From NCBI GenBank assembly GCA_001816655.1, contig MHCP01000015.1, positions 6,485-70,484 on the forward strand: a stretch of 64,000 bases of DNA, read 5' to 3'. This DNA is from Candidatus Woykebacteria bacterium RBG_13_40_15 (lineage in GTDB: Bacteria; Patescibacteriota; Microgenomatia; Woykebacterales; RBG-16-39-9b). The translations under genes were made by a program, and so were the position numbers. Below, in pieces: positions 5,639 through 55,230 of the stretch. The notes beneath the pieces are model-generated. The model had not been told where the DNA came from. It was given only the letters and a program-made list of their open reading frames with translations, and searched no databases. How positions within the stretch are numbered: the first letter of the stretch is position 1; each line of letters begins with the position of its first letter.

Positions 5639-5996
5639 TGGTGGAGATGCCCGGCTCTTCCCCGGGGTCCGAAAAGATAACTTACTAGAGAAACTACAAG
5701 CTTAGTCAACATTTAATTTCAGTTTAGGCCTACTAGTTGACGAGCCAGCCTAAACCTAGGTCGCAAGTCTAACTTTCCATAGAAGAACCGGTTCTACAAA
5801 AAGCCTCTTAGCAAGGGTTGCGCCTTGCCATCTCCGCTAAGATAGAGAAACGACAAGACGGCTCATTACGCTACTGCGTATTGAGCGGAAAATGCTTTGT
5901 TGGCATTTATTAGGTTGATCGGAATTTTAACGGTGGTCCCGATCGACACCGGCTTGCTCTTTAGCTAGAGTCTTCCCGTCGAATATATACATCCCC
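5639..5996 (-). ncRNA. ssrA: tmRNA (SsrA)
   Basis: Minus-strand 5' end GGGGATGTATATATTCGACGGG pairs with 3' end CATCTCCACCA, giving a 7-bp acceptor stem with a G3-U wobble, the AlaRS identity element. A T-arm-like CCCGG-GGAAGAG-CCGGG is present. Internal tag ORF is ...GCC AAC AAA GCA TTT TCC GCT CAA TAC GCA GTA GCG TAA TGA, reading ANKAFSAQYAVA then a double stop. smpB is adjacent. Confidence 0.8.
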
Positions 5997-6043
5997 ATGA
6001 TAAGTCAAAACTCAAAATTCAAAAGTCAAATTAAAACTGGTTG

Positions 6044-6508
6044 TTAAAGTGCTTCTTTCTGATGCTTCAGTTTTTCTTCCCGCAAAGTGCTTTCAGCTTC
6101 CCTTTGGAGGGCTTTTCTCTTTAAAGCCTCACGTTTATCGTACTTTTTCTTTGGAGAGGCCAGAGCGATCTCAATTTTAGCATAATTACGTTTAAAATAC
6201 AAGCGCGTAGGGACCACTACCAAATTTGCTCCAGCAAGTTTTCCGGCCAAGTAGTTTATTTCTTTTTTATGCAGAAGGAGTTTTCTGTCCTTACGGCCAC
6301 TACTAGTAGTGGCTCCCTTTTCATATGGACCAATGTAGGCATTAACGAGTACGGCTTCTCTGCTACGGATTAAAGCATAAGAGTCGGTTAAATCCACCTT
6401 GTTTTCTCTAACTGCCTTTATCTCCTCTCCAGTTAAACTAATGCCGGCCTCTAATTTTTCGTTCAGGGTGTAGTTGAAGGTTGCTTTCTTATTGAAGATT
6501 GGTTTCAT
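6044..6508 (-). CDS. smpB: SsrA-binding protein SmpB
   Basis: 154 aa with typical SmpB pattern GISLTGEEIKA...KLLLHKKEI and a basic C-terminal tail. Confidence 0.85.
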   Translation of the reverse strand: MKPIFNKKATFNYTLNEKLEAGISLTGEEIKAVRENKVDLTDSYALIRSREAVLVNAYIGPYEKGATTSSGRKDRKLLLHKKEINYLAGKLAGANLVVVPTRLYFKRNYAKIEIALASPKKKYDKREALKRKALQREAESTLREEKLKHQKEAL

Positions 6509-8454
6509 TGGAGTTTGAACGAGTAAACTGTATTTTGGGCGAGAAAATAAACTACTTTTTTAGATTCGTCAACAATGATAGCCTTCGCTCCTCTCAAGTT
6601 ATCGGATTGGTATAGGGCGACGTAATTCCCGCTTTGTTTTTCAATCACAAATACGCCGCCTGCTCCCTTATCTAAAATATAAAGGTTTACGAAACCTTCC
6701 TTCGTATAAATATCTGCGATTTCAGAAATCTCCCGCGGTTGATTCTTTATGGAAAAGTCTTGCCTCTTACCATCAAAAAATTTGCTGACGGAGTCCCCCG
6801 TAGCTATCCAAACTGCCCCGTCTATTGCAAAGGAGGTAGCTTCCCCATTAAAATTTTCGGTTAAATATTTCTGTGGTCCTGAAAGTGAGGATCCAGCAGA
6901 AAAATAACGCCAAACCTGTTTTGCCCCAGAATCTAGAAGATAAAATTTATCCCTAAAGGTTTCGGCCTCAATTGGGTTTTTCCAGGAAGGAGAGCTAAAT
7001 GCGGCTCTTTTCTCTTGTTCATTTTGATCTACTTTTAATATCTCGTCTTTGGTTTGGAGATAGAGATAATTTTCGTCAGCGGCTATATTTTTTGATCCCT
7101 CTTTCTCGGAAACAAAAATCTTAGGTTCGGCTCCCTCAAGTGGGATTTTGTACACAGAACCAGAATTTACATCAAATGCATAGAGGTCTGATGCTCCCAT
7201 CTTAATTTCCTTAACATCAATTTTTCCTTTGAGTAGGCTAAGATCGCTAAAAAGCTTCGTTTCCACATTGTAAATTCGGTTGATTTTTGTAAGCAGCCCT
7301 GCCAACTTCTCTTTCAAATTCTTTACCTTGGGGTTTTTTGATGAGGAAATTTTAGATAACTCGCTTTCTGCTTCAGTAACAAGGCTAGCTGCTTTTGCTG
7401 GATTTATTTTTTCCAAATTTTCCGCTTCTGATAGCTTACTTTCCACACTTGCCACAGTAGCATCAAACCTCTCTTTTGATTCTTTTCTTGAGTGATTAAA
7501 AAACCCAACCGAGATACTTATCAGGAAAATGGCAGCTAAAACAAGGGCTATTTCGGCAATGCGTTTCTTTTTCCGACTCGCTTCATCCTCCAATGCTCCC
7601 GGGAGGCGGGGGAGCCAGGGAGATAAAATAATAAAGAGGGCCTTTCTGACATACGGTTTGGAGAAAGAAAGGGCACGCCTTGCCTCAAGCTTTACCCGAA
7701 ACAAAAAATTATTAAAAAATTCAACTTTTAATTTTGGTTTTGGTATTTTATCTATCGAGTTTTTGAATGCTTCTTGAAACTTTTGCCCCCTCTCTTCTTC
7801 TCCTATTTCTTTTTTATCTAAATCGGCAATCAAAACCGGATACGGTTTTTCTACAGGCTCTTGCACTGAAAGTCGCACATATAAAGCCTCCCCTACCTCT
7901 TTTATTTCGGTTTGAATTGCCTCCAGGCTTTCTTTGAAATCGTCTTTCTGACAAAATTTGCCTAGGGCTTCTTTATTTACATTTTTTGAGAAGGTAGAGT
8001 CTGCTAGAAAAATTCCATCTTTATCAAAAAGTGAGCCGGAAGCTACTTTAGAAAAATTAATTTTCTTTGTATTCCCACCCCTTGCAAGAAAGAGGCCACA
8101 ATCGCCGCTTTTACCGACATAAAGTACTGACCCCCAAAGGCAAGCAACAACCATTTGAGCTGGCATTTGTTCTTTCGCAATAGAGGCTTTTACAGTTTCT
8201 ATTGCTTCTTCCATTGCTTTTAAATTACTTCCGCTAGCTTTGTAAAAGGTATTTTTAAATAAATCGAGGATCCCTCGGCCAGCTACCAGTCCTTTATCTT
8301 CCGATTCACTTTTTACTTCGACCAAAGCAAGGGTCATTCCTCGTAGTTGCTTTAAATGTTCATCTGTCGGGGTGTATTGAAAAGTCGAAGAAAAAACTCC
8401 TTCTTGGTTTTTTCCGTGGATTTCGCCTACTTGGGCAAACAAGGTTTTTTCCAT
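6505..8454 (-). CDS. membrane protein with N-terminal PP2C-like phosphatase-like domain
   Basis: N-terminal MVVACLWGSVLYVGKSGDCGLFLARGG resembles the PP2C core strand-turn motif. One TM helix, a coiled coil, and a C-terminal beta-rich domain. Overlaps smpB, so likely an operon. Confidence 0.3.
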   Translation of the reverse strand: MEKTLFAQVGEIHGKNQEGVFSSTFQYTPTDEHLKQLRGMTLALVEVKSESEDKGLVAGRGILDLFKNTFYKASGSNLKAMEEAIETVKASIAKEQMPAQMVVACLWGSVLYVGKSGDCGLFLARGGNTKKINFSKVASGSLFDKDGIFLADSTFSKNVNKEALGKFCQKDDFKESLEAIQTEIKEVGEALYVRLSVQEPVEKPYPVLIADLDKKEIGEEERGQKFQEAFKNSIDKIPKPKLKVEFFNNFLFRVKLEARRALSFSKPYVRKALFIILSPWLPRLPGALEDEASRKKKRIAEIALVLAAIFLISISVGFFNHSRKESKERFDATVASVESKLSEAENLEKINPAKAASLVTEAESELSKISSSKNPKVKNLKEKLAGLLTKINRIYNVETKLFSDLSLLKGKIDVKEIKMGASDLYAFDVNSGSVYKIPLEGAEPKIFVSEKEGSKNIAADENYLYLQTKDEILKVDQNEQEKRAAFSSPSWKNPIEAETFRDKFYLLDSGAKQVWRYFSAGSSLSGPQKYLTENFNGEATSFAIDGAVWIATGDSVSKFFDGKRQDFSIKNQPREISEIADIYTKEGFVNLYILDKGAGGVFVIEKQSGNYVALYQSDNLRGAKAIIVDESKKVVYFLAQNTVYSFKLQ

Positions 8455-17080: not shown

Positions 17081-18763
17081 ATGTTCCTGCCCAAAAAATT
17101 TGTACTTACATTGGTAGCCGCGATTTCTGCCTTTTTTTTGTTTGGCGCGCCTGTTTTTGCGCTTGAGCAATCAATCACTTCTACAACCCCTAGTGCAACT
17201 ACCTCTGTAGGAGGCGGGCAAGTTATGGGTTGGCAGAGTGCTGTTGGTGATTTTTTTGGAGATGTCGCGGGGGGTATGATGAGTACCGCGACGAAACTCA
17301 TGGGTCAAGCTCTAGATACGGCATTAGACCACTTTTTAATTAAGGGTGCAACTGGGTGCTTATCCTCCGACAAGGGTTGCCAGCAGGAACAAGTTCAGGA
17401 GGTTATGAATGGAACGCCGATTGAAAAAATGAGCAATCCGGGTTTTCTTCATGTTTTAGCTTCCGGTGGGGACCAGCTTATGACTATGCCAATACCAATA
17501 GATACCGGTACCTATTTCGCCTCGATTAACCCTTTTAAACAGGCGCAGGCTGCTGACACTGGTTTTGATGAACTTCAAAGATCGACCGGATTATTGCGCC
17601 TTTGGGTAGTCTTGAGAAACTCTGCCTATGCCCTGTCTGTACTTGTCCTTGTAGTCATTGGCTTTATGATCATGCTTCGGGTGCCGCTTGATCCACGCAC
17701 AGTGGTTACGGCGCAGAGTGCAATCCCAAGGATAATTATTGCCCTTATTTTAATTACGTTTAGTTTTGCGATCGCCGGCCTGTTTCTTGACTTTGGCAGG
17801 CTAGCGGTCCAATCGGTTCATTGGGTATATGGCCAAGTTGGTATTAGTTGGGGCGGAGCCTTGTTGAAGCTTATCGGGGTAATTGTTTTTGGTAGCGCAT
17901 CAATTGGAGCTATCATGGGGTTTGGCCTGCCGGGATTTATTCTTGGAGCGGTAATCGGCGTCATAATCGTTGGGGCGGTCCTTCTGTATCTTTATTTCAA
18001 AATGATTTCTCGGTTTGCCCAATTCGTCGTTCTCTCTATATTCGCGCCAATGGTTTTCTTATATGCCGCTGTTCCCGGACAAACAAGCGCTGCTACAAAT
18101 TGGTTCAAGCGTCAGCTCTCCAATATTCTCGCCACACCGGCCATACTTTTCATGGTCGCCCTAGCTCTTGTTGTAATTAATACCGGTATCCCTAACCCCC
18201 TGTATCGTGGTAACCCTTTTAATCTAGCCGATAGCTTTACTCCATTTTTAGTCGCGTTTGGTATCTTGTTTGCCGCGACACGTGCTCCGGAAATAGTCGA
18301 TGATTTACTTGGTCTAAAGAAAGCGCCCGGAGCTAACGCAGGGTTGACTGGCGCTACACTTATGGGTGGTCTAACCACAGCAACTAGAAATAAAGAACTC
18401 ATAAAGGGTGTTGGATCGCGACTTGCCGGCGGACCGCTTGGAAAGGCGGCTGGTGCCGCCGCTGCACCCCTTCGGGCTGGCGCAAATAAGCTCACAGGTG
18501 GTTACTTCGACCGAAGAGCAGAAAGGGCTAGAGATGACAGAGCTCTTAAGCTGGCAAAGGCGAGTTATGATGAGCAACAAAGAAGAGATCGAGGAACGGA
18601 ACTTTTAAAACAACAGGGTTATATTAAAGGAGAAAAGGGAGAGCAGGGAGAACAAGGAGAGCAGGGAGAACAAGGAGTCTCACTTATCAATCCTGGGCCT
18701 CAATACCCTGCAAAGCCAGCGGGAGGTGGGACAAGCCAGGAGGATCAAAATCAAAATACATAG
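17081..18763 (+). CDS. VirB6/TrbL-like polytopic membrane protein with C-terminal collagen-like GEQ repeats
   Basis: Signal peptide and at least 6 TM helices in the central region. C-terminal GEKGEQGEQGEQGEQG is encoded by a tandem 18-nt DNA repeat at about 18628-18675. Confidence 0.45.
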   Translation: MFLPKKFVLTLVAAISAFFLFGAPVFALEQSITSTTPSATTSVGGGQVMGWQSAVGDFFGDVAGGMMSTATKLMGQALDTALDHFLIKGATGCLSSDKGCQQEQVQEVMNGTPIEKMSNPGFLHVLASGGDQLMTMPIPIDTGTYFASINPFKQAQAADTGFDELQRSTGLLRLWVVLRNSAYALSVLVLVVIGFMIMLRVPLDPRTVVTAQSAIPRIIIALILITFSFAIAGLFLDFGRLAVQSVHWVYGQVGISWGGALLKLIGVIVFGSASIGAIMGFGLPGFILGAVIGVIIVGAVLLYLYFKMISRFAQFVVLSIFAPMVFLYAAVPGQTSAATNWFKRQLSNILATPAILFMVALALVVINTGIPNPLYRGNPFNLADSFTPFLVAFGILFAATRAPEIVDDLLGLKKAPGANAGLTGATLMGGLTTATRNKELIKGVGSRLAGGPLGKAAGAAAAPLRAGANKLTGGYFDRRAERARDDRALKLAKASYDEQQRRDRGTELLKQQGYIKGEKGEQGEQGEQGEQGVSLINPGPQYPAKPAGGGTSQEDQNQNT

Positions 18764-18822: not shown

Positions 18823-21681
18823 TTACACTGCTGGCACTACAAGTGGGCTACCGTTTCCCCTAGGCACCCACTTCCTGCCATAATACTGCCCTTGCTCCAA
18901 GAGATAGGGAATTGTTCCCCCAACTATCTTTATCTCCTCGTTGGTCCATCTACCCTCAATGTCTAAGAGAACCTTCTCGGGACTCGTTCTCCCAAAATTG
19001 AGAGCTGCGGCTCCAAGCAACGGCTGGACAACTTCCTTCGCAACCGTCTGTATATCCTCCCACTCTTCAAACGTACCGTCCATGATCTTCCCTGCGATCA
19101 AACCCTGTGCCTTTTCCGGGCTCTGCTGGTAGTAGTTGAAGCCAAGGACCTTGGCCAAGCGGCTCTGAGCTAGGAAACTAGCCGATTGTTTAGGGAGCCT
19201 GATCACATGGAATCTCTTTGCTTGCTGTACCTTTGGATCGTGGATGCTTAGCCCCCGACGATATGCCCCTTCCAGCAAACGAAGCGCCATTGGAAGGCTG
19301 GCTTGCTTAAGCTCGCCATCATTGCCATTGGCCAACTCTATCAGCACAGCATCTGCGAAATCGTCGGCTACCTCAAGCCTTTTTGCAGCGAAGTTGCGCC
19401 AGTCCGGCCGACCATCTCCCTCAAGCCATGGCTGTCCTGCCAAATCCGCTCGGTATCCTTTACGGAGATCGGTTTCCCCCATGTCCTCATTTTCTTGGGC
19501 TTGCCTATCTATCAGGGCTTGCTTAGGAGCGAGTGGCTGTCTATTCCACATGAGTAACAGCATATTCCCAAATTGGGTGTAGCTGGGTCTAGCTGGGTCG
19601 TTGCTGGTCCAGCGACTAAACCGGACATTTTCTTCCGACCCAAAAGCCATGGGCGAGCGGAATCTCTGGTTCGTTTTATCCACGAGGGACATGAATACAA
19701 TCCCATCGTAGGTTTCCCACAGCCATTTGGGATCGTCCGTAGCCAGGTCTATTTTCTGGAGGGCCCAGAGGAACTCGTTGGGGTAGTTCATTACCTTCGC
19801 CAAATCTCTGTCCACCCCAGTTGCACCTCGGGGTGGAAGAACCCCCCAAATCGCTTGGCCGCAATAGCTCCAGATCATCTCCAAACCCGACTGAAAAGCC
19901 AAGTGAGCATCAAAGATCTCCCTAGCTAGGGAGTTTCCGTGGTCTCTTTCCTCAAAGGGATCCTTCATCATCCAGTAGGGACCGAGGATCCTTTCTCTCA
20001 CAGCCTGGATCGTCTCTTCCTCCGTCGGCGCTCTGTTGTCGTGGCCTTCTTTCCACCCCGCTAACCAGCGCGGACCGAGATACTCTAACCGCTCCTCTTG
20101 GCTCCTTCCGCTCACCTCTTCGGCGAGCTTGTAGAGCCGCATGAAACGATCGTTGTACTTCCACTCAAGTGGCGGCCGTGGCCCTCCAGCGTCATTGTCG
20201 CACGCTTGGGCGTTCACTGCTTCAGTAAGGCCTCCCTGACCACGCTTTGTACGCATGCTCCTCGCCATCTGCCAGGCTCTAATGATTCGGACGATGTCGC
20301 GCAAGACCTCGAAAGGCGCGGCGAACATCTTCATTGCCTCCCAATTCAACCCATCCGGGGTAAGGACCGGAGGCTCAATCAGGTGGAAGTAAAAGCCAAC
20401 CAGTGTCCATAGCTTGTCGGCCTTTTGCTCCCAGGTAACGGCTTGTATGTTCCAGACTGATTGCCAGATCTTCCTGAGCTGGTTTAGCTCCGTTAGGTTC
20501 ATCCAGTCGTATTCCTCATTGAGAAGATTCTCGAAGCCGCCCTGAACAGGAAGACAACTTAGGGCAGCCCTGACCGGATCAACCTCTAGGGCATCGAAGT
20601 CTGCTTCTGGGCCCGCCCCACTCTCTTGGAACTTTGTTCGTTCCTGTTCCTTTATCTTCTGCAGGCCTTCGTAGACCTGCCGAGCAGTAACAAACTCCAA
20701 TGCCACCTCAAGGTGAACGCGGTAGTAAAGCGCCCCCTCGGTTTCCAGCCAGCCGGGTACGCAAAGCTTGCCCCCTATTTTCATAAATGGCAGGGGCGGT
20801 GGAACATCCTCAGTCTCTGGATCGTACCGCTCTTTGATTAGAGAGGGGTCCCGAAGAGCTCTGAGGAGGTCGAAATCCAAAGAGTCCCCTGTGACTGGAT
20901 TGGCGTAGCCTCTGTAGCAGTAGGGGACATACGTCTTCTCCTTAGGCCGCCTTTCCACGCTAGCAGGGTCTCTGCGGTAGTCCTCGATTAGCTTCCACCT
21001 CCTCTCCAACTCCTCGTTGTACCGCTTTTCCAACCGGGCCTTTGGCACCATGTGGAACGGTTGGCGAGGGCTTTGGGAGTAGGCCTCTTCTATAATCGGG
21101 GTCAGGACCCAGTAGCGAACTCGCTGAATTTCACCTAGGAATTTGTAGGTTTCGTCTCCGAGAGAGAACGTGTGGAATTTTCTATATGCCTTTCTCTCCC
21201 TACTGCCCTCCTCTCCACTCTGGAGACGTTTTTCGTAGTGCTCCCCCCATCTCTCCTGATGGGTAGCGAAGGCCCCCCTCATTCCCTCTGGCAAGTGGCC
21301 CAAGAACATCGGCTCGCCCTTCACCATACGGTAGATGTTGCCTTTATCATCCAGAAGGACGTGGGCTTTTTTTCCCTTCTTAGGCGACCACTCAAGGTCC
21401 AGCCTTTTGTACAAACTTTCCAGATCCTGTGGCTTCGTGGTCCTCCACATCCATACCGGCACGTAGATTCGGATCCCCTTCTGTGAGAAGAACTCCAGTA
21501 GCCTGTCGATTATCCTTGTCGTTATGGCTTGAAGTAGTGCCCACTCAGAGCTGAAGGGAAACCTTCTGCCTCCCGCATAGTCTTCGTCCTGCAACCAAGT
21601 CCTGTCGGTTACCCGAACACCGCTTGTGGCAGCTTGTTCCTCTTCCTCTTCTTGAAAGTCCGTGTCGTTCATCATTGTCAT
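18823..21681 (-). CDS. large hypothetical protein (952 aa) in GC-rich island 1
   Basis: Long uninterrupted ORF. Local GC is markedly higher than flanks. No recognisable catalytic motif by eye. Acidic N-terminus, Trp-rich. Confidence 0.6.
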   Translation of the reverse strand: MTMMNDTDFQEEEEEQAATSGVRVTDRTWLQDEDYAGGRRFPFSSEWALLQAITTRIIDRLLEFFSQKGIRIYVPVWMWRTTKPQDLESLYKRLDLEWSPKKGKKAHVLLDDKGNIYRMVKGEPMFLGHLPEGMRGAFATHQERWGEHYEKRLQSGEEGSRERKAYRKFHTFSLGDETYKFLGEIQRVRYWVLTPIIEEAYSQSPRQPFHMVPKARLEKRYNEELERRWKLIEDYRRDPASVERRPKEKTYVPYCYRGYANPVTGDSLDFDLLRALRDPSLIKERYDPETEDVPPPLPFMKIGGKLCVPGWLETEGALYYRVHLEVALEFVTARQVYEGLQKIKEQERTKFQESGAGPEADFDALEVDPVRAALSCLPVQGGFENLLNEEYDWMNLTELNQLRKIWQSVWNIQAVTWEQKADKLWTLVGFYFHLIEPPVLTPDGLNWEAMKMFAAPFEVLRDIVRIIRAWQMARSMRTKRGQGGLTEAVNAQACDNDAGGPRPPLEWKYNDRFMRLYKLAEEVSGRSQEERLEYLGPRWLAGWKEGHDNRAPTEEETIQAVRERILGPYWMMKDPFEERDHGNSLAREIFDAHLAFQSGLEMIWSYCGQAIWGVLPPRGATGVDRDLAKVMNYPNEFLWALQKIDLATDDPKWLWETYDGIVFMSLVDKTNQRFRSPMAFGSEENVRFSRWTSNDPARPSYTQFGNMLLLMWNRQPLAPKQALIDRQAQENEDMGETDLRKGYRADLAGQPWLEGDGRPDWRNFAAKRLEVADDFADAVLIELANGNDGELKQASLPMALRLLEGAYRRGLSIHDPKVQQAKRFHVIRLPKQSASFLAQSRLAKVLGFNYYQQSPEKAQGLIAGKIMDGTFEEWEDIQTVAKEVVQPLLGAAALNFGRTSPEKVLLDIEGRWTNEEIKIVGGTIPYLLEQGQYYGRKWVPRGNGSPLVVPAV

Positions 21682-23459: not shown

Positions 23460-25262
23460 ATGACTGATATAACTGTCCCTCTAACAAGGGTCGGTAACCT
23501 TACTTCTGATCTACCGGAAAAAGCACCACCCTACCCAGGGGAAGCCCTCGCGGGAAGGTCTCCAAAGAGATTAGTCGAGGAGCAAAAAACAGGAGACTTG
23601 AAACTAGCATCCGCAACGCCTTTTAAACCAGTCGCTTCGATAAATTATCCGGAGAAAAATATTTACGTCGCGCCGCTTAATAATGTTCAGCCTAGCCGTG
23701 GCTTGAACCCAGTTGGTAGCCGAGGAGTGGTTTCCTTACCTATTCAGGGCGAGAGGGTTTTTGAAATCGAGGACGCAATCAGAAAGCCTGTTGAAGCACG
23801 TATCGAAAAACTTTTATCCCAATACGAGTCTCCACCCGTGGAGCAGGTAAAACCTCTACTCCCCCCACAAGGGCCTCCTCCTGTAGGAACGGGGGAAACA
23901 ACTGAGCAAGCTAAGACGGAGCTAGAGAACATTAAAGAGGCGGTTCGCAACGAGCTGCTAAAAAAGGGCGGCAAAGATCAAACCTTGACACCGATCCCGT
24001 CTGGGACGCCAGCAGCTACTGCCCCAGTGGCTGTTCCTTCAGCTTCGTCGCCGCAAATACAATCCCCACAAACAGCAACGATCCCAGCGGAGCAACAGCC
24101 AAGCGCGCCAAGCATTATATCTATACCTACGCCAACAGCGCCCAAGCAGGATGAAACTGAGATCCACAAACGGGTGGAGCCGCCTCAACCAGAACAGATT
24201 GTATCGCCACCAACAGAAGCGGCCAAAATTGGGCCTCCTACAACTCAAACCGCCCCCTTGCAGACAACTCCACCACCAGGCGAATCGGCGACAAGTAAGC
24301 TTTTTTCGGAGGCGGAAAAATTGCAAACTGAGCTAGCTAATTTACAAAAGGAAGTTTCGGAACAAAAGTTGGGGGGAAAAGGCGAGGGAACCGCGCAAGT
24401 CGGCGCCCCTACAACCCCCTCTTCTATTCCTGTTTCTATGCCTGTTCCCAATATTGTTGTTGCTCCTACTCCTCCCCAACCTACCCCTGTAACTACCCCT
24501 CCGGCTCAAAAATCTGCTCAAGATGAACAGATTAGGAGGCTAGTTACTGAGAGGTCGGAGCTACTTAAGCAAATTAATGATCTTAGCAGCAAGCTTCAGG
24601 ACGAGAAAACCCAAAAACAGACTGCGCAAGAGGATGCAGACTCATTTCGGAAAAAAACCAGCACCTTGGAGAAGGAAAAGGCCGATATTTTAGGGCAAAG
24701 CGAGGCTATTAAAGCAGACTTAGTGAAAAACCAGCAGGTCCCTACTTCAACGGAGGGCCTCCCTAAGGAAATAGAAAATCTACGCTCCCGCCTTTTAGTG
24801 GCTGAGCAAGCGAAAAAGGTAGACGAAGAAAAAATAAACCAACTAGAAGATTTAATTGCTGGGGCAAAGCAAATACCGCAAGGAAAAGTCGATCTAGTTG
24901 AACCGGAAAAAGCTAAGAGTGTAGAAACTTTATCTAAGCAGGGTGTAGTTAAAGTTGTTAAACCCGACCTTGCAGTTGGGAAAATGGCTCCTTCGTTGAC
25001 AAGCGCCCCCAATGTAATAAATGGCATCGTTCGGGACAAGGGGGGATTGCTTCTTTCAAATGTAATTATAGTCGTAAAGGATAGTACGGGCGACCCGGTA
25101 AGGGCCTTGAAGACGAATAAGATTGGTCAGTTTGCAATTTCGACGCCCCTACCAAATGGCACATATATTATGGAGCTAGAATCGACAACTAATAATTTTA
25201 ATAATATTCAGGTGGAACTCAAAGGCGAGGTATTGCCACCAATAGAGATAAAGGCTACCTAA
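23460..25262 (+). CDS. Pro/Gln-rich coiled-coil protein with C-terminal carboxypeptidase-regulatory-like beta-sandwich
   Basis: Long low-complexity Pro-rich region, coiled coil, and C-terminal GIVRDKGGLLLSNVIIVVKDSTGDPV...GQFAISTPLPNGTYIM. Possible envelope-spanning T4SS scaffold. Confidence 0.35.
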   Translation: MTDITVPLTRVGNLTSDLPEKAPPYPGEALAGRSPKRLVEEQKTGDLKLASATPFKPVASINYPEKNIYVAPLNNVQPSRGLNPVGSRGVVSLPIQGERVFEIEDAIRKPVEARIEKLLSQYESPPVEQVKPLLPPQGPPPVGTGETTEQAKTELENIKEAVRNELLKKGGKDQTLTPIPSGTPAATAPVAVPSASSPQIQSPQTATIPAEQQPSAPSIISIPTPTAPKQDETEIHKRVEPPQPEQIVSPPTEAAKIGPPTTQTAPLQTTPPPGESATSKLFSEAEKLQTELANLQKEVSEQKLGGKGEGTAQVGAPTTPSSIPVSMPVPNIVVAPTPPQPTPVTTPPAQKSAQDEQIRRLVTERSELLKQINDLSSKLQDEKTQKQTAQEDADSFRKKTSTLEKEKADILGQSEAIKADLVKNQQVPTSTEGLPKEIENLRSRLLVAEQAKKVDEEKINQLEDLIAGAKQIPQGKVDLVEPEKAKSVETLSKQGVVKVVKPDLAVGKMAPSLTSAPNVINGIVRDKGGLLLSNVIIVVKDSTGDPVRALKTNKIGQFAISTPLPNGTYIMELESTTNNFNNIQVELKGEVLPPIEIKAT

Positions 25263-42541: not shown

Positions 42542-44492
<1,951 letters not shown>

Positions 44493-44500
44493 GCAGATAT

Positions 44501-44523
44501 CAGAAAGCAGACAGCAGTAAGCG
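44501..44523. repeat. CAGAAAGCAG...CAGTAAGCG motif at left edge of GC-rich island 2
   Basis: cagaaagcagacagcagtaagcg shares a 10-mer and a 9-mer with the repeat at 22365-22395. Confidence 0.5.
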
Positions 44524-44632
44524 TTAGAAGTAGGCCTTAGGAACCTCAAAGCCTGTAGTTCTCCACTCGTTTCGGATAATTTTGATCTTCCCATAAATTT
44601 TTAACTTGAGAAAAAATGTGAAAACTAGGACA

Positions 44633-44666
44633 GTCAGGGGAACCTCGGTTTGGAAGTTCCCCTGAC
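44633..44666. terminator. strong hairpin downstream of minus-strand 295-aa ORF (11-bp stem GTCAGGGGAAC/GTTCCCCTGAC)
   Basis: Perfect 11-bp stem, 12-nt loop, and T-rich trailer on the minus strand. Confidence 0.5.
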
Positions 44667-44677
44667 GAGTGCGTGAA

Positions 44678-45565
44678 CTAGCTTTTCTTGACTAGCTTGC
44701 CGTGCGGTCTCCAGGAGGAAGGCCGGCCTTGTGTTATGACCTCAACCATTCTTGTTGGCCACTCTGTCCCGAATTGTAGGAGACGGCCGAATCCGAGACG
44801 TAGGGCCGTAGGTTTGTCTGGAAGCAACAACGGAAGCTCCTCGGGGTTTATTTTCTCACCCTCCCTGTAGAAAGCTGCATGGTGCTTTACTGGGCAGACT
44901 AGCAGTACTCTCTTGAGGAAGAAGAATGCGACGAAATGGTCCTCTCTATTGAGGCAGCGGACCAAATAAGTCGCCTCTGGTGCTAAGCCCCAAGGTATGG
45001 TTAGTCGCTTAGGATCCGTGGCCGAGTGCTGTTGCCAGGTAAAGACACCCCAGTGCTTCGTATATACCCTCCCCTCACTGTCGATTTTCACCACTTCCAT
45101 CAGGTCTGGTACCGGAGCGCGGGTGAGCGGGCCGGTCCCAACTAGCGGCGGCTGGCGGATTGGGGGCAGATCGTCCAAATGGAGACAGCCGATAAAGGGC
45201 CGCTTCTCTGGCCAGGTTTCCATTCCTTCCACTGCCCCAAAAGGTAGTACCTCTCTTCCAAACAGGATTTCCGAACCCTGCTTGAAAGTTCCAAACGTCG
45301 CTCCGTTGTCAGGATTGGGAAAGCCGAATCTACCAGAGGGTGAAACTCGGCAAAACCGGGTTGGAAGGCGCGCTCTTAGACATCTCTGATAGTAAAGACG
45401 TTCCATCCATGTCGGGGCTTGACCAAGACTCTGAACAAGTTCCCAGACATCCGACTCCCCCAGTAGCCATAGCCTATAGCGAAGCTCAAGATCTTCATCG
45501 GGCATGATCAGTAGGTGTGCGCCACTTGATGTAACCAGGTGAAACGTTAATTTGGCGGGCGGCAT
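44678..45565 (-). CDS. hypothetical protein (295 aa), GC-rich island 2, candidate retron accessory/effector
   Basis: Long ORF with island-like GC content. No recognisable motif. Confidence 0.5.
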   Translation of the reverse strand: MPPAKLTFHLVTSSGAHLLIMPDEDLELRYRLWLLGESDVWELVQSLGQAPTWMERLYYQRCLRARLPTRFCRVSPSGRFGFPNPDNGATFGTFKQGSEILFGREVLPFGAVEGMETWPEKRPFIGCLHLDDLPPIRQPPLVGTGPLTRAPVPDLMEVVKIDSEGRVYTKHWGVFTWQQHSATDPKRLTIPWGLAPEATYLVRCLNREDHFVAFFFLKRVLLVCPVKHHAAFYREGEKINPEELPLLLPDKPTALRLGFGRLLQFGTEWPTRMVEVITQGRPSSWRPHGKLVKKS

Positions 45566-45737
45566 GACGTTCCCTCCTTGGATTTGAACTCTCCTTAACT
45601 ACAATCTCCACTCCAACTGTTAAATATATTAAAACTTTTTTTGTAGCTGTCAAGCGGCTTTTAGCTAAAAAGTACCTTATTAATAAGCGAAGTTGAAAGT
45701 TGCAGATAAAACCATATTTATCTAAAATGTTATTGCT

Positions 45738-46223
45738 ATGGGGAAATTTGAGGCTTTGACACCAGAACAAGTAAGACAATTTGAAAAAGAAGCAGTTAAA
45801 AGATTTAACCACGAGGAAAACGATCATCCACATGTTGAACCCCAGGTGGGATCACTTGAGCTGGCCCGCTTTAAGGCCGTTTTTCCTTTCCAACTTTTTC
45901 CAGACGAGTTGATAGTCGAGGAAAAAAGAGTGATTTGGATTCATCGTTTTGGCCCACGAATGTGCGAGGTAATTACTCTTTTACCCTCCGATATAAATAG
46001 AGTCGAAGCTTCCACCGGCCCTCTCTTTGGCCATCTTCATGTCTCTATACCAAGGCACGATATTGAGATTCTTATCGACCGTCTTAAACGAAACGACGCT
46101 CTCTTTGCCCGTGATTTAATTGATGGTCTAGCTACAGCAGCCAGACAAAACCTAGCGATAGAAGGCGAAACTGCGCAAGAAAAAGTAGATTTTCTTCTCC
46201 GTCTTTCCCACGTGAGTGTCTAA
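45738..46223 (+). CDS. hypothetical protein (161 aa) immediately upstream of retron-like ncRNA, candidate effector
   Basis: Same strand as the RT, ending about 40 nt before the a1 repeat. No recognisable motif. Confidence 0.5.
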   Translation: MGKFEALTPEQVRQFEKEAVKRFNHEENDHPHVEPQVGSLELARFKAVFPFQLFPDELIVEEKRVIWIHRFGPRMCEVITLLPSDINRVEASTGPLFGHLHVSIPRHDIEILIDRLKRNDALFARDLIDGLATAARQNLAIEGETAQEKVDFLLRLSHVSV

Positions 46224-46262
46224 ACCTTGACCGAAAAAGCCCTAAATGATATAAAGACACTA

Positions 46263-46388
46263 ACTTGGGCTAGAGCTTAAGTGGCCCCAAATTGGCCCGC
46301 ACCGTCAGATGGCTGACTGGTGTAAACGGGAAGGCTGGCGCCTCGTTCCCGGCGCGCGTTTACCAGCCCGAACTTGAGTAGCCCAAGT
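46263..46388 (+). ncRNA. retron-like msr/msd non-coding RNA bracketed by a1/a2 inverted repeats
   Basis: Perfect 10-bp inverted repeat ACTTGGGCTA (46263-46272) and TAGCCCAAGT (46379-46388). The enclosed region has a GGCC hairpin and a long imperfect stem GACTGGTGTAAACGGGAAGGCTGGCGCC / GGCGCGCGTTTACCAGCC. It lies directly upstream of a retron-type RT. Confidence 0.55.
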
Positions 46389-47432
46389 GAGGATGGGGCT
46401 GCCGTACTAGCTAATAGCGCGGCAGCCCCTAGAAAATGGAGAGCGATAATGAGATCAATAGAGCCAGTTATATTCTCCAGCGGAGAAGGACGATTCCCAG
46501 CGGAGGGTTTGGAGGTTGACTATAATAGGTTCGGATTCAACCCCCTAGTCTACCTCGGGTTCCTAATAGGTATACCAACAAGGTGGATCGATTACGTAAT
46601 AAAAATCGGTGCCGACAACTTCTACACCGAAGTTAGGATACCGAAAAAGGGTGGTGGGGTGAGGGTTCTTCAAGTACCCCTAGATCCCTTAATGGGTATT
46701 CAGAGAAGGATTCTTCGCAAGGTTCTAAGCCAACTAGAGCCCAAGAGCTCCTGCCACGGCTTTGTTACTGGTAGATCGATAATTACCAATGCCCAAGTCC
46801 ATGTCGGATCAACGCACATGCTTGTCCTCGATCTGGAAAGTGCATTTGATCAAGGCCTGTCTAGTCGAATCTTTAGAGAGCTCTGGGGAGAGAGGGTTGG
46901 CGAGAGGAGGCTTGGATTTCTGGTCGCCTCCTTGATAACACAGCTCTGTACAGTATACAGCGGGGATATTGGAGAACGGTACGGGTTTCGGCACCTTCCT
47001 CAGGGAGCACCAACCTCACCAGCGCTCTTTAATCTTGCTTGCCGTCCGTTGGATGGAAGACTGGACCACTTCGTATGGAGAATCGGTGGGGTTTACACAC
47101 GCTATGCGGACAACCTTGCTTTCTCCGTTCCTAGACAACTGACCCCCAAGGAGGAGCATATAATTCGGAAGATAGTAGATGGGAGTGGTTTCAGAGTTAA
47201 CGATGCCAAAACGAGGTTGATGCGCCAAAGCGGGCACTCGATCCTGCGTCTTCCAGGGGTCGCTATCAACAACGGAAGGATAATACTTCCCAAGAGGAAG
47301 AGAAAGCAGCTGCGGGCAGCAATTTACCTAGCCGCCTTGCATGGAGAGACAGATAGGCTTCGGGGACTAATAGGCTTTGTGGAGCAGGTGTACGGCCCCG
47401 AAGTCCCAAGACAAATAATCGGTAGTCACTAG
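46374..47432 (+). CDS. retron-type reverse transcriptase (motif C reads YADN)
   Basis: RT motifs present: IPKKGGGVRVLQVP (motifs 1-2); HGFVTGRSIITNAQVH carrying the retron-specific VTG and NAxxH; LDLESAFD (motif A); LPQGAPTSPALFNLA (motif B); YTRYADNLAF (motif C with the second Asp replaced by Asn). The likely true start is ATG at 46449, which has a GGAGAG ribosome-binding site. Confidence 0.8.
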   Translation: MSSPSEDGAAVLANSAAAPRKWRAIMRSIEPVIFSSGEGRFPAEGLEVDYNRFGFNPLVYLGFLIGIPTRWIDYVIKIGADNFYTEVRIPKKGGGVRVLQVPLDPLMGIQRRILRKVLSQLEPKSSCHGFVTGRSIITNAQVHVGSTHMLVLDLESAFDQGLSSRIFRELWGERVGERRLGFLVASLITQLCTVYSGDIGERYGFRHLPQGAPTSPALFNLACRPLDGRLDHFVWRIGGVYTRYADNLAFSVPRQLTPKEEHIIRKIVDGSGFRVNDAKTRLMRQSGHSILRLPGVAINNGRIILPKRKRKQLRAAIYLAALHGETDRLRGLIGFVEQVYGPEVPRQIIGSH

Positions 47433-52099: not shown

Positions 52100-52895
52100 T
52101 GGCAAGACCATCTTTATAGACCTCAAAGTGGAGGTGAGGACCAGTAGTCACACCTGTATCTCCAATAAAACCAATTATTGCATCGCTACCTACGCTTTCC
52201 CCGACCCGAACATTAATTCCAGAAAGATGTGCATACTTGGAGTCAAAACCATTTACACTTTGAATAATAATAGTATTGCCAAAACCATGGCTGTTCCAAC
52301 CAGCAAATACCACCTTTCCCTTGGCGAGAGGCTTTATGGGGGCACCGTGCGGGGCTGTGATATCTATACCCCGGTGGTAAGAAGAGAAGAGGCTCGTTAT
52401 ACCACCGCGAATGGGCCATGTAAAAATAGGGTGTTCTTTAGCAACTACTTGCGTAGATATAGTAAGCTTTTCTATTTTAGGCGTAACTGCAAGCTGGTTT
52501 CCAGCCACAACAGTGTCTGGCCTTTGATTAAAGCCAACAAGTAAAAATATTAACCCAAGTACTACGATTGTCCTAAAGGCAAATGTAGGAACAGCTTTTC
52601 TAAATGTTTGCCAAAGGAAAAGTACCTCGGTTAAAACACTCAAAGCGTCAATAATAATAGCTTCCGGGGTAAACCAGACGATATTGCCACGCAAGGCACC
52701 AGTTCCAGCAGCTGCGTGGGAGAATTGTACATTTCGCAGGGGCAGAGCGCGCCTTGTACCAAAAGGCACATAGGTGGTTCTGTTTAACATAATCCCCGCC
52801 AGCAACTGCGTAGCTGTGGGCGGGGTAGAAACAAAAAATCTCCCATATTTTTGGGAGACGCGGCGTATTCTAACAGAAAGGACAAGTAGTGTCAA
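52074..52895 (-). CDS. M23 family metallopeptidase
   Basis: HRGIDITAPHGAPI (HxxxD) and GDTGVTTGPHLHFEV (HxH). Confidence 0.8.
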   Translation of the reverse strand: MTLLVLSVRIRRVSQKYGRFFVSTPPTATQLLAGIMLNRTTYVPFGTRRALPLRNVQFSHAAAGTGALRGNIVWFTPEAIIIDALSVLTEVLFLWQTFRKAVPTFAFRTIVVLGLIFLLVGFNQRPDTVVAGNQLAVTPKIEKLTISTQVVAKEHPIFTWPIRGGITSLFSSYHRGIDITAPHGAPIKPLAKGKVVFAGWNSHGFGNTIIIQSVNGFDSKYAHLSGINVRVGESVGSDAIIGFIGDTGVTTGPHLHFEVYKDGLAINPLSVLP

Positions 52896-52956: not shown

Positions 52957-53030
52957 GGCGTGGTGGTCGAGTGGTTAGACACGGGTCTGCAAAACCTGTC
53001 ACAGCGGTTCGAATCCGCTCCACGCCTCCA
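52957..53030 (+). tRNA. tRNA-Cys (anticodon GCA)
   Basis: GGCGTGG acceptor. Anticodon stem-loop CGGGT-CTGCAAA-ACCTG. T-arm GCGGTTCGAATCCGC. 3' end CCACGCC-T-CCA. Confidence 0.85.
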
Positions 53031-53050
53031 AAGCCCGGGCTAATAAATAT

Positions 53051-53079
53051 CCTCTAGTAATTGACATAGTGTTATTTTT
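53051..53079 (+). promoter_or_regulatory. consensus sigma70-type promoter (TTGACA-17 nt-TATAAT)
   Basis: TTGACA at 53051-53056 and TATAAT at 53074-53079 with an exact 17-nt spacer. Drives a roughly 300-nt leader before the first island 3 ORF. Confidence 0.6.
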
Positions 53080-53390
53080 CTGGTATAATACAACTTGTTC
53101 TTTGAAATATTAGAAAAGTTACAGGTCTCGAAAGGCATCTAGTAACTGGTAATAATTGTATTTGTAACTGTCACTGTTAAAAACCTTGAAGTAAATGCAC
53201 ATTAAAACCAGTTACCAGGTGCCTTTATTGTGCCGCGGAGCTTTATGCGAAGTGGCATTGGTACCAGTACCTTGAAAATTACTCCTTACAAACTCTCCTT
53301 CACTTGGGCTCGCTCATATTGTTCTTAAATTTATTTTGAGAACAGTTAGAGCGGCTTGCTCAAGCATTACAATACGAAGGAGGTTGTGAC

Positions 53391-53831
53391 GTGACAGCCC
53401 GTCTAGTCAAAGGCGTGTACGGTACGTATCTGGCCCCTTTTGAAGGCCCCTTCGGCCTTCGCTATGGGCAACGCAGGAAGTGGTACATCCACAACAATGC
53501 TGGGTGGTACAATTCTGAAGGCGAGAAGTTAGGATGGGGCGATCTCAACATTGAGGATATTCAACGAATCGCTTCGGAGCTCCTGCCCGGCGAGGTGTTC
53601 ATCATCCTCAGTGAGCAGGACACTTCCTGGCAGCACGACCGAATGGATGCTCCCGGGATCGAGTACTGTGCTTTCAAATGCCACTGTATTATCCTTCCAG
53701 GGAAGGTATACAAGGTGGTGGGGCATGAATACGAAACCGCGGACGAGGACGTGGAGGATCAAGGGCTCGCCGTAACCCTAGTTTCTCGCTCTCGTGCAAG
53801 GGAGCTTCTCAGCCAGCCTACCAACGCCTAG
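53391..53831 (+). CDS. hypothetical protein (146 aa), GC-rich island 3
   Basis: GTG start preceded by GAAGGAGG. GC-rich codon usage unlike the host. No recognisable motif. Confidence 0.5.
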   Translation: MTARLVKGVYGTYLAPFEGPFGLRYGQRRKWYIHNNAGWYNSEGEKLGWGDLNIEDIQRIASELLPGEVFIILSEQDTSWQHDRMDAPGIEYCAFKCHCIILPGKVYKVVGHEYETADEDVEDQGLAVTLVSRSRARELLSQPTNA

Positions 53832-53945
53832 ACAACAGCAAGGAGTAAGCGATGTGTAGTCCAAATCAAGCAGCGATGTTTGAAGAGGCACAAGTACCAT
53901 CGTAAACTTCTTAAGGAAATCATGGTTCGATAAACTCACCACAAG

Positions 53946-54401
53946 TTGGTTTTCTTAGGAGAGATCATGAACAACGTGAGTTCGTGGTCTGTAGTCAAGG
54001 AGGGAGAGATGAGTACCTTAGAAGCGCAGTTAATGGACGCTACCTTCGATTGGCGTCACCGCATACTACACCACCGTGATGGAACGTGCGGCGCCTCGGC
54101 GCGTGACCTGGAGACCGGCTCGCTTTATTGCCCTGCCGAGGCGTCCAGGGCACCGCCTGATCGGATCATCAAGGAGGCGGGCAGGGAGTACACAGAGCCA
54201 CTCCCTTGCCTCACCAGAATCCTCGTTCGGCTCGCTCGTTTAGATGCCGAAGCGAGGATATTTGCCACCGGCTTCCTCAGCTTCTGCGAGAATGCCGGAG
54301 TTCCCAAGGTCGCAGCGGAGGCTATCTGGGAAGCCGCAGTTCAGCAGACCGAGGATTATCTTGCTAGGTCAAAGAGCCTCGACGAGCTTAACGCCGAGTA
54401 A
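53946..54401 (+). CDS. hypothetical protein, GC-rich island 3 (likely start ATG 53967)
   Basis: AGGAG RBS at 53956-53960 and ATG at 53967. No recognisable motif. Confidence 0.5.
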   Translation: MVFLGEIMNNVSSWSVVKEGEMSTLEAQLMDATFDWRHRILHHRDGTCGASARDLETGSLYCPAEASRAPPDRIIKEAGREYTEPLPCLTRILVRLARLDAEARIFATGFLSFCENAGVPKVAAEAIWEAAVQQTEDYLARSKSLDELNAE

Positions 54402-54658
54402 GATCGTCCGTCTTCCTAGCGATTACGGACACGGCTACGGTTTGGCGGTTTCGGCAAAGGCATTGCCTTGTCTCTTCCGCCATGTCGTGACGAACGGCAA
54501 AAACAAAAAGTTGGTCAGGCAAAACCGTTCTACCTGGCCGTAAAAACAACGGTGCGAAGGCCTCTTGAGGCATGCGTGGGAAGGAGCAGACATATGCAAT
54601 GTTTGTTTCCTTCCCTTCCCTGAGCAAATCAAGAAATTGGTTTTCTTAGGAGGAGACG

Positions 54659-54684
54659 CGACCTGAAAGGGTCGTTTTTCTTTT
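54659..54684 (+). terminator. putative Rho-independent terminator (CGACC-TGAAAG-GGTCG then TTTTTCTTTT)
   Basis: Short GC stem followed by a T-run. Lies within a roughly 360-nt non-coding stretch. Confidence 0.35.
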
Positions 54685-54766
54685 CCGAGGAGTTTGCAAG
54701 GCCCGTCCTTGCAGCTTCGACACAACCATTTCCCATTTTAATTCTTTGTGTTAAAATTACTCCGCC

Positions 54767-55015
54767 ATGGAAAAAGTCCAAAAGATCAAGGTTTTAAAAT
54801 ACACCGCCATTTTTGAACCAGATAAAGAAACTGGCGGTTACACTGTAACTATCCCAGCGTTACCTGGCTGTATTTCCGAGGGCGATACTTTTGAAGAGGC
54901 GTTAAAAAATATTAAAGAAGCAGCTGAGCTTTACCTGGAAGTTTTGAAAGAAGAGAAAGAGGAAATACCAGTCGAAGAAAACCCCGTCGTGGCGCCAATT
55001 GAAGTTAGAGTATGA
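54767..55015 (+). CDS. hicB: HicB-family antitoxin
   Basis: KYTAIFEPDKETGGYTVTIPALPGCISEGDTFEEALKNIKEA is the UPF0150/HicB RNase-H-like fold signature. Confidence 0.75.
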   Translation: MEKVQKIKVLKYTAIFEPDKETGGYTVTIPALPGCISEGDTFEEALKNIKEAAELYLEVLKEEKEEIPVEENPVVAPIEVRV

Positions 55016-55230
55016 CCAAACTCCCTGCTGTAAAACCAAAGGAACTAGAAAGGGTTTTATTAAAAGCCGGTTTTAAATTTGTCCGTCAAAAGGGAAGCCA
55101 CAGAATGTACGTCAGAGGAATTTATAAGGTTGTCGTTCCCTACCACAACAAAGATCTAAAGAGTGGCACCCTGAGAAATATCCTTAAGCAAGCCAACCTT
55201 CCTCCGACACAATTATCCAAAATTCTTTAG
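55012..55230 (+). CDS. hicA: HicA-family mRNA interferase toxin
   Basis: PKELERVLLKAGFKFVRQKGSHRMY is the YcfA/HicA signature with catalytic His. Overlaps the hicB stop by 4 nt. Confidence 0.75.
   Translation: MTKLPAVKPKELERVLLKAGFKFVRQKGSHRMYVRGIYKVVVPYHNKDLKSGTLRNILKQANLPPTQLSKIL

Follow-up and report, generated by a model that had tools for sequence, protein, structure and literature searches.

Does the guanine-plus-cytosine (GC)-rich segment beside a tRNA-Cys gene of Candidatus Woykebacteria bacterium RBG_13_40_15, an uncultivated bacterium of the candidate phyla radiation (CPR), represent a single integrated element, or are foreign genes held there by sequences that belong to the chromosome? 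The segment is located in a 64-kb stretch of a 162,841-bp contig (the whole analyzed stretch is called the window) and carries two GC-rich open reading frames (ORFs), ORF1 (A2172_00965) and ORF2 (A2172_00970), followed by a hicB-hicA toxin-antitoxin pair. An initial annotation had taken promoter, leader, both ORFs and HicBA together for one small integrated element or defence islet. Comparison with related genomes led to a different answer, which with some reserve we regard as the probable one: an accessory-gene hotspot of Woykebacteria extends from tRNA-Cys to the PEGA/SH3 gene, and in the subclade of the window it contains a fixed, selectively maintained expression frame in which foreign genes have been repeatedly swapped.

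Contigs for this comparison were reached via orthologs of the adjacent M23 peptidase (A2172_00955), which are 68-74% identical on the amino-acid (aa) level in two related species. One species is represented by a 332-kb Joint Genome Institute (JGI) contig (L081) and a Logan contig (L082), the other by a 66-kb JGI contig (L083) and a Logan contig (L084). Orthologs of the tRNA-Cys gene adjoin the M23 peptidase gene in L081, L083 and L084, and the succession M23 peptidase, tRNA-Cys, variable segment and PEGA/SH3 is found in all four contigs. In the window and in both species the order of the genes is kept on one flank (SBP_bac_5, histidine kinase, M23, tRNA-Cys) as well as on the other (PEGA/SH3, a 176-aa protein, UbiA, GT4). 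The interval between tRNA-Cys and PEGA/SH3 contains ORF1, ORF2 and HicBA in the window; a 136-aa ORF without Pfam match, MazE, a PRK-family kinase and HicBA in L081; and one alpha/beta hydrolase (5e-29) in L083. Relatives with the same flanks lack both ORFs and carry other genes, and neither ORF1 nor ORF2 has housekeeping homologs; the findings that the initial annotation had named as refuting it were thus not made. In more distant Woykebacteria (L159, L160 and L161; M23 peptidase ∼46% identical), in which the tRNA is inverted, the interval is variable too and is occupied by an HD-domain gene, a HAD gene, or HicBA with VapBC and others. Since its contents vary even in these genomes, the interval is a long-standing accessory-gene hotspot. 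The frame described below was not found in these distant genomes with covariance models of its long hairpin and of its repeated hairpin R. When genome contigs were scanned with the M23 peptidase, all matches were generic M23 domains of Bacillota and others, none of them from Woykebacteria, and short contigs of the close relatives L164, L167 and L168 stop at the tRNA, so that no sequence of the slot was gained from them.

In the three genomes that carry the frame (the window, L081 and L083), the same elements follow each other in the same order: promoter, leader, long hairpin, hairpin R1, ∼30 nucleotides (nt), a Shine-Dalgarno sequence (SD; CAAGGAGGGA), a cargo ORF, a cargo-specific 3′ untranslated region (UTR), hairpin R2 and a terminator. 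Compared with L081 and L083, promoter and hairpin are 88%, the R1 region 90-97%, and R2 plus terminator (∼70 nt at the far end) 82-86% identical on DNA level, whereas the flanking protein-coding genes reach 71-76%. Because the non-coding frame, at 82-97%, is better conserved than the coding DNA around it, purifying selection on the frame is implied. Three parts initially read as foreign DNA, namely the promoter, the leader over its first 140 nt and the repeated 18-mer in R, therefore belong to a conserved chromosomal frame that is also present in relatives without ORF1 and ORF2.

What lies between the R copies differs entirely from genome to genome: ORF2 in the window, the 136-aa protein in L081 and the alpha/beta hydrolase in L083. 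The GC content at the third codon position (GC3) of the four cargo ORFs, ORF1 included, is 0.64, 0.66, 0.73 and 0.59 vs. 0.34-0.41 in the native neighbors. All four are co-oriented with the conserved promoter and contain no internal promoter-like site of at least 9/12 on that strand. In the window, GC reaches 0.51-0.60 over ∼53400-54600 compared to a mean of 0.42, as the initial annotation had observed, and the codon-position GC of both ORFs is coding-like (GC1/2/3 of 0.61/0.40/0.64 for ORF1 and of 0.60/0.48/0.66, with GC1>GC2, for ORF2). Two usual marks of an island are thus present, an atypical composition (GC3 of 0.64-0.66 vs. 0.34-0.41) and presence or absence among relatives. Together with the phage-borne relatives of ORF1 (see below), they bear out the initial view that the DNA past the tRNA-Cys is variable and horizontally acquired. 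The coordinates of all features are collected in Table 1.

Table 1. Features of the tRNA-Cys to HicBA region, in positions of the window
Feature	Position	Strand	Evidence and remarks
tRNA-Cys (GCA)	52957-53030	+	ARAGORN; Rfam 62 bits; left anchor of the variable region
Sigma-70-type promoter TTGACA-17-TATAAT, TGn extended -10	53061-53089	+	sequence match 12/12
Promoter-proximal RNA (candidate)	53096-53236	+	∼35-nt single-stranded 5′ leader, 96-nt hairpin, U-run; ∼88% identical to L081/L083
ORF1-specific 5′ UTR, 154 nt	53237-53390	+	fold -46.8 kcal/mol, z = -5.4; absent from L081/L083; single instance
ORF1, 146 aa	53391-53831	+	foreign gene of a large uncharacterised phage-borne family
Putative 17-codon mini-ORF (MCSPNQAAMFEEAQVPS), SD AAGGAG	53852-53905	+	in the 3′ tail of the insertion with ORF1; seen by reading the sequence
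R1	53907-53964	+	covariance model 31.6 bits, E = 1e-4; complete hairpin, enlarged loop of 24 nt; 3′ arm is the first 18-mer
Translation-initiation segment after R1	53966-54008	+	small hairpin CATGAAC-AACGTGA-GTTCGTG with ATG 53967, then SD CAAGGAGGGAGAG (53997-54009) and in-frame ATG 54009
ORF2, 144 aa from ATG 53967 or 130 aa from ATG 54009	53967-54401	+	foreign orphan gene
GC-rich structured 3′ UTR of the ORF2 cassette	54402-54615	+	halves fold with z = -3.8 and z = -6.6; no homology in L081/L083
R2	54616-54655	+	covariance model 58.6 bits; 3′ arm is the second 18-mer; conserved in L081/L083
Bidirectional intrinsic-terminator-like hairpin	54658-54685	.	GAAA loop; A-run before, T-run after; right edge of the frame
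hicB-hicA toxin-antitoxin pair	54767-55230	+	Pfam; HicAB type II by its domains, activity predicted

The left part of the frame starts with the promoter. A perfect consensus promoter had been pointed out initially; it exists and is the sole exact match in the window, but it is located 10 nt from the position first given (53051-53079). Four other sites with one mismatch are present in the window, where 0.38 are expected at up to one mismatch. The 12/12 match with the TG is also found at 7748-7720 of L081 and 7749-7721 of L083. Downstream of it, the inverted repeats reported in the leader were recovered as two 26-nt arms (53131-53156 and 53201-53226) of 85% complementarity, which enclose a 96-nt hairpin (53131-53226) with 39 consensus pairs. 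The 295-nt leader as a whole folds at -98.8 kcal/mol (z = -6.7) and the promoter-proximal piece alone gives z = -4.2. Among the three genomes, one compensatory and two one-sided changes keep the pairing of the consensus fold. The homology with L081 and L083 stops abruptly past the U-run, at ∼53236. This promoter-proximal RNA is, judged by its sequence, a candidate small RNA (sRNA) of ∼135 nt and/or an attenuator. A covariance model of the long hairpin found the three copies only and none dispersed; a scan of metagenome contigs with its 3′ arm returned the L083 contig as sole match, and the arms had zero matches in viral contigs. Against Rfam 15, neither leader, R nor 3′ UTR had a match and the tRNA alone passed; matches at E up to 10 were noise due to the long hairpin, for instance to plant miRNA models with 19-20 bits vs. 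gathering scores of 74-144.

The long hairpin was also considered as a retron msd, and this reading was rejected: the only reverse transcriptase (RT) gene of the window, at 46374-47432, is 6.7 kb off and has its own structured upstream region, L081 and L083 keep the hairpin without an RT within 8 kb, and the hairpin is not flanked by a conserved a1/a2 repeat of the kind that encloses msr-msd in retrons. An ORF of 11-15 codons was observed at or next to the predicted transcription start (53095-53142 in the window, 7717-7673 on the minus strand of L083 and ∼7716-7680 on the minus strand of L081). It would be leaderless; its first codon is TTG in the window and L081, and ATG in L083. The window and L083 differ here by two 1-nt indels that compensate each other, and the ORF is nevertheless open in all three genomes. 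Its peptide is not conserved and it is probably due to chance in AT-rich sequence.

The second recurring element of the frame is the hairpin R. The repeated 18-mer noted initially is exact over 16 nt (TTGGTTTTCTTAGGAG, at 53946-53961 and 54637-54652), and this 16-mer occurred twice in 0/100 shuffles, but the copies differ at positions 17-19 and the starts given for them (53943 and 54639) were 2-3 nt off. Folding and a covariance model further revealed that it is not simply a ribosome-binding site and forms the 3′ arm of a hairpin. In R2 this is a 13-bp hairpin of ∼32 nt (CCTGAG-C-AAATCAA-GAAA-TTGGTTT-T-CTTAGG). In an alignment of five R copies, 93% of cells were paired and two compensatory pairs were present (CAA/TTG to CTC/GAG in R1 of L081). 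R2 matched the model with 55.6-58.6 bits in each of the three genomes and R1 of L081 with 53.9 bits, while the R1-like copy of L083, which is located directly after the long hairpin, has diverged (21.7 bits, E = 0.026). Neither the 64-kb window nor ∼66 kb of related DNA contained a further copy, and R is therefore specific for this locus and not a dispersed REP-like (repetitive extragenic palindromic) repeat. Beside R2, the terminator-like hairpin of the initial annotation was recovered as a stem-loop (54658-54675) followed by a T-run. In L083 it directly abuts the stop codon of PEGA/SH3, which argues for a bidirectional terminator.

Viral contigs were scanned as well. The 25-mer right of R1 had zero matches, and the 5′ part of R gave 73 AT-rich chance matches. 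The best extended one of these (23 nt, in five related contigs) was rejected as an attP because it is located inside a capsid-like ORF.

The junction between R1 and the cargo is the best conserved part of the frame. Between the window and L081, the 39 nt that follow R1 (GGTTTTCTTAGGAGAGATCATGAACAACGTGAGTTCGTG) share 97% identity, although the proteins encoded downstream are unrelated (BLASTP E = 14). In the window the ATG of this segment is in frame with ORF2, resulting in an in-frame fusion. In L081 this ATG begins an ORF of 15 codons, and the TGA at its end overlaps the GTG start of the cargo (GTGA, a stop-start coupling); in L083 the ATG of the hydrolase is found in an equivalent GGAGATCATG context. 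A further insertion (53237-53906), present only in the window, is located between the long hairpin and R1 and carries ORF1.

Two other assemblies of the same population (ERZ28563994 and ERZ4902897) break at the frame. Their contigs L162 and L163 start exactly at 54650, inside R2, and ORF1 is found on separate short contigs (L165 and L166) that end at 54040 and 54072, with one single-nucleotide polymorphism near 54036. ORF2 was thus never assembled contiguously in these two assemblies. Strains that differ in the ORF2 cassette, or a problem of coverage, could account for this.

ORF1 belongs to a family of 753 clusters at 50% identity in a profile search, 133 of them with E < 1e-30, which share the invariant core N-x-GWYN-x2-GEKLGWGDL. 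Relatives were identified on IMG/VR contigs, among them jumbo phage contigs of 338 kb and 392 kb and a myovirus-like contig with a tail sheath gene; the neighbors of these relatives were uninformative. ORF1 had no match in Pfam, PHROG, PADLOC, NCBIfam or GenBank phages, and its AlphaFold 2 (AF2) model (predicted local distance difference test, pLDDT, of 78, usable) had no Foldseek match in PDB or BFVD. A stretch of 23 residues resembles the C-terminal beta-hairpin of RecA, which is a weak match (single-domain E of 0.47, hhalign probability of 35%). In the fold of the ORF1 5′ UTR, an anti-SD CTCTCCTTC (53293-53301) pairs with the SD GAAGGAGG (53376-53383). For ORF2, only a self-match was obtained among 5.8 billion proteins, and Pfam, PHROG, PADLOC and NCBIfam gave no match; its single-sequence AF2 model (pLDDT 43.6) was too poor to be informative. 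The 3′ UTR of ORF2 ends in a hairpin GGGAAGGAG...TTCCTTCCC at 54578-54615. Neither island ORF had an integrase or mobility-gene match in Pfam, PHROG, NCBIfam or PADLOC, and since PADLOC returned nothing for ORF1 or ORF2, the designation as a defence islet is not upheld.

HicBA, correctly placed downstream by the initial annotation, was confirmed by Pfam (HicB at 54767-55015, PF15919, 8.9e-15; HicA at 55012-55230, PF07927, 8.2e-20; the genes overlap by 4 nt). With a GC of 0.40-0.41 and a GC3 of 0.36-0.41 it is native in composition, and it is 86% identical in L081 and absent in L083. Because of this native GC and its presence in L081, HicBA is not part of the GC island; it was acquired separately and earlier, and it is located outside the frame. 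Between the R2-terminator and HicBA, L081 has two more genes (5822-6900, read on the minus strand), one for a MazE-like antitoxin and one of the PRK family (uridine kinase/phosphoribulokinase-like). Past the PRK gene, at 5790-5830, the 3′ half of the terminator is found a second time (AAGGTCGTTTTTCTTT), which suggests that the MazE-PRK pair was inserted at or inside the terminator.

The frame thus consists of a consensus sigma-70 promoter, a candidate ∼135-nt RNA with the 96-nt hairpin and U-run, R1 with the conserved SD/start segment, and R2 with the bidirectional terminator. Promoter-less foreign ORFs, different in each genome, occupy the slot between R1 and R2, which in the window is filled by ORF2, with ORF1 as an additional insertion upstream of R1. 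In the favored explanation, transcription from the conserved promoter would either stop at the long hairpin, giving an sRNA, or read through into the cargo. The long hairpin may accordingly yield a discrete sRNA, attenuate transcription, or do both. The frame would provide SD and start context to the cargo, R and the ORF1 leader would partly occlude the SDs, and the terminator would end the transcript. R might act on the RNA level, by SD occlusion or through transcript stability (compare the GAAA tetraloops), or on the DNA level as a recombination site. Turnover of the cargo could occur by recombination at or near the conserved hairpins, either as homologous exchange via the conserved flanks or with the help of a trans-acting recombinase.

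Several points weigh against this explanation. The long hairpin with its U5 looks like a terminator, and if it is efficient, the cargo would hardly be transcribed from this promoter. ORF1 is placed before R1, unlike the other cargos, so that insertion is not confined to one site. The covariation in R was reached by 25 of 500 shuffles, which makes it supportive and not conclusive, and since the frame is known in three independent genomes only, the covariation statistics are weak. No recombinase within ∼8 kb, no circular intermediate and no empty site was seen. Finally, the elements of the frame could be conserved for unrelated reasons, as an independent sRNA, as the terminator of PEGA/SH3 and as the 5′ UTR of an ancestral gene.

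The first alternative is the one suggested initially, a remnant of a single element (prophage, integrative and conjugative element or defence islet) at the 3′ end of the tRNA-Cys, which has since lost its integrase and brought promoter, leader, ORF1, ORF2 and HicBA together. It would account for the position next to the tRNA 3′ end, the GC-rich anomaly, the phage-borne relatives of ORF1 and the toxin-antitoxin genes close by, such modules being present in the same interval of other relatives. However, promoter, hairpin, R and terminator are 82-97% identical in relatives without ORF1 and ORF2, HicBA has native GC and is shared with L081, and the foreign DNA forms two separate blocks at two positions of the frame. 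Also, the last 25 or 15 nt of the tRNA-Cys have no second copy in the window at up to three mismatches, so that the attR site looked for as a sign of integration is not there. No recombinase was present among the Pfam hits of called genes within ∼8 kb, neither in L081, L082 and L083 nor among the immediate neighbors in the window (M23 peptidase, histidine kinase, SBP_bac_5, HicBA and PEGA/SH3), the rest of the window and genome not being exhaustively scanned; no integrase is thus found within ∼8 kb in the three genomes. The comparison with L081 and L083 largely refutes the single element, and we consider it very improbable. An autonomous, efficiently terminated sRNA gene, made up of promoter and long hairpin and with a cellular function of its own, is a less remote alternative, although still a rather doubtful one. 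Here, cargo unrelated to the sRNA would have landed in a neutral gap between two terminators, and R would be an mRNA-stabilizing or terminator-associated hairpin that belongs to the adjacent genes. In L081 and L083 the hairpin is indeed flanked by an A-run and U5 as in an intrinsic terminator, conservation ends right past the U-run, R2 and terminator in L083 directly adjoin the stop codon of PEGA/SH3, and GNRA loops are present. This leaves unexplained, however, why R1 and the conserved SD/start segment precede unrelated cargos and why each of the four cargo ORFs has the same orientation and no promoter, and the pairing of the sRNA 5′ leader with R was no better than with shuffled sequence.

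A dedicated system for cassette capture was weighed as well, in which the R hairpins, as folded single strands or as palindromic core sites, would be the sites of a recombinase encoded elsewhere and a cassette would comprise ORF, 3′ UTR and one R copy, similar to an integron without linked integrase. Direct R repeats bracket the cargo in all three genomes, the arms of R are conserved while its apex varies with compensation, and the 97% identity right of R1, the highest in the frame, is found next to unrelated cargos, which lack promoters and point in the direction of the conserved one. In class 1 integrons, the short ORF of attI1 has a role in translation initiation, and the conserved SD and short ORF before the cargo resemble it. 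That two independent assemblies of the same population start a contig exactly at 54650, inside R2, would fit as well. On the other hand, the locus has no linked recombinase, R with its 32 nt and CTTAGG is unlike attC and is confined to this single locus, ORF1 is located outside the R1-R2 interval, and the GAAA tetraloops in R and terminator point to a role on the RNA level. Furthermore, R1 and R2 of L081 differ centrally, which would block their recombination, and only three genomes are available. Such a system is therefore unlikely. Equally unlikely, and bolder, is the proposal of a previously undescribed platform for gene capture and expression in CPR bacteria without linked integrase. In it, R hairpins downstream of a resident consensus promoter and a structured RNA would be recombination sites, at which a trans recombinase or a hairpin-directed single-strand mechanism would swap small promoter-less cassettes from phages and GC-richer donors, as a functional integron analog made from unrelated parts. 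The swapping of foreign genes within a maintained expression frame at the tRNA-Cys hotspot, by whichever route, is the explanation retained here.

Some observations were made beside the frame and elsewhere in the window. On the other side of the tRNA, a promoter that matches the consensus at 11/12 positions (TTGACA-17-TAGAAT, with TG) precedes the M23 peptidase gene; the stretch in question is 52838-52895 on the minus strand of the window, 7909-7966 in L081 and 7911-7968 in L083. The 5′ UTR of the gene contains a conserved terminator-like hairpin with T-run (GTCTCCCAAAAATATGGGAGAT TTTTTG) directly after the promoter, followed by a second GC-rich hairpin; the first hairpin is also recognizable in the distant L160 and L161. 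These hairpins may represent an attenuator or regulatory leader. In L081 and L082, an AbiEii/AbiEi toxin-antitoxin (abortive-infection) pair is located between the 176-aa gene and PEGA/SH3 (L081 2480-3786); it was not found in the window or L083 and marks a second variable spot a few kb off.

Another GC-rich island (44400-47432) carries the retron-type RT gene mentioned above (plus strand; Pfam RVT_1 1.5e-18, PADLOC retron RT models down to 5e-56). In its upstream region (46215-46390), a promoter-like TTGACC-17-TATAAA is found together with a structured part, on both sides of which the inverted repeat CTTGGGCTA/TAGCCCAAG resembles a1/a2 of a retron non-coding RNA. Its neighbors of 161 aa (45738-46223) and 295 aa (44678-45565, minus strand) have no assigned function, and at the same position L081 has the genes for a 103-aa and a HAD protein instead. 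A diversity-generating retroelement was rejected, as no template/variable repeat was found near the RT. The largest GC-rich island (∼18.0-21.8 kb, GC up to 0.56) encodes a protein of 952 aa (18823-21681, minus strand), next to which a 560-aa protein is encoded (17081-18763); neither has a Pfam or PADLOC match. In a further GC-rich patch, a 600-aa ORF (23460-25262) had weak matches only (CarboxypepD_reg-like, 8e-4; PADLOC LmuB/JetC-like SMC, 8e-6 and 5e-4).

The genomes of CPR bacteria are tiny, and little is known of the ways in which foreign genes enter them and become expressed. Conserved non-coding elements around GC-rich foreign ORFs that are replaced wholesale point to a maintained "landing and expression pad". 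If the exchange is site-specific, this would be a new cassette system. If it is not, the locus would still offer a candidate abundant sRNA of Woykebacteria, a natural set of strong promoter and terminator for an uncultivated phylum, and a foothold for the phage family of 753 clusters.

Compared with known systems, the locus shares features with several and differs from each of them. Like tRNA-linked islands, it adjoins the 3′ end of a tRNA, has an atypical composition, varies in content among relatives and accumulates toxin-antitoxin modules; unlike them, it has neither an integrase nor a tRNA-derived att repeat, its variable DNA begins ∼200 nt past the tRNA inside a conserved frame, and the inserts are single small genes of ∼0.7 kb. 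ORF1 is reminiscent of a phage moron, as its family is phage-borne and this small accessory gene is enclosed by a promoter and a terminator, but no prophage surrounds it and promoter and terminator are part of the host frame, common to unrelated cargos. With sRNA genes that end in a Rho-independent terminator, the promoter-proximal RNA has in common the consensus promoter, the short single-stranded 5′ region, the terminal hairpin with U-run, the length of ∼135 nt and the conservation across species, whereas its hairpin is unusually long (39 bp), has no Rfam match and no predicted target, and is followed by conserved elements downstream. R resembles REP sequences and bacterial interspersed mosaic elements (BIMEs) as an imperfect palindrome of ∼32 nt beside a terminator, 3′ and intergenic; it is not dispersed and occurs at this locus only. 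In integrons, each cassette ends 3′ in an attC site, an imperfect palindrome that measures at least ∼57 nt and has RYYYAAC and GTTRRRY cores. In contrast, R has 32 nt, its 3′ arm TTGGTTTTCTTAGG contains CTT instead of GTT and has no RYYYAAC partner, and it is conserved rather than cassette-specific; in addition, no intI, the tyrosine recombinase gene of integrons, is adjacent (Pfam, ∼8 kb), at most two cargos are present, and ORF1 is located outside the R-bounded interval. Similar to an integron, however, a strong resident promoter is predicted to read into co-oriented, promoter-less foreign ORFs, which are bounded by repeated structured sites, and an SD with a short ORF before the first cargo can initiate or couple translation. 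The locus is therefore a tRNA-linked hotspot that has none of the defining parts of an integron and follows an integron-like logic of expression.

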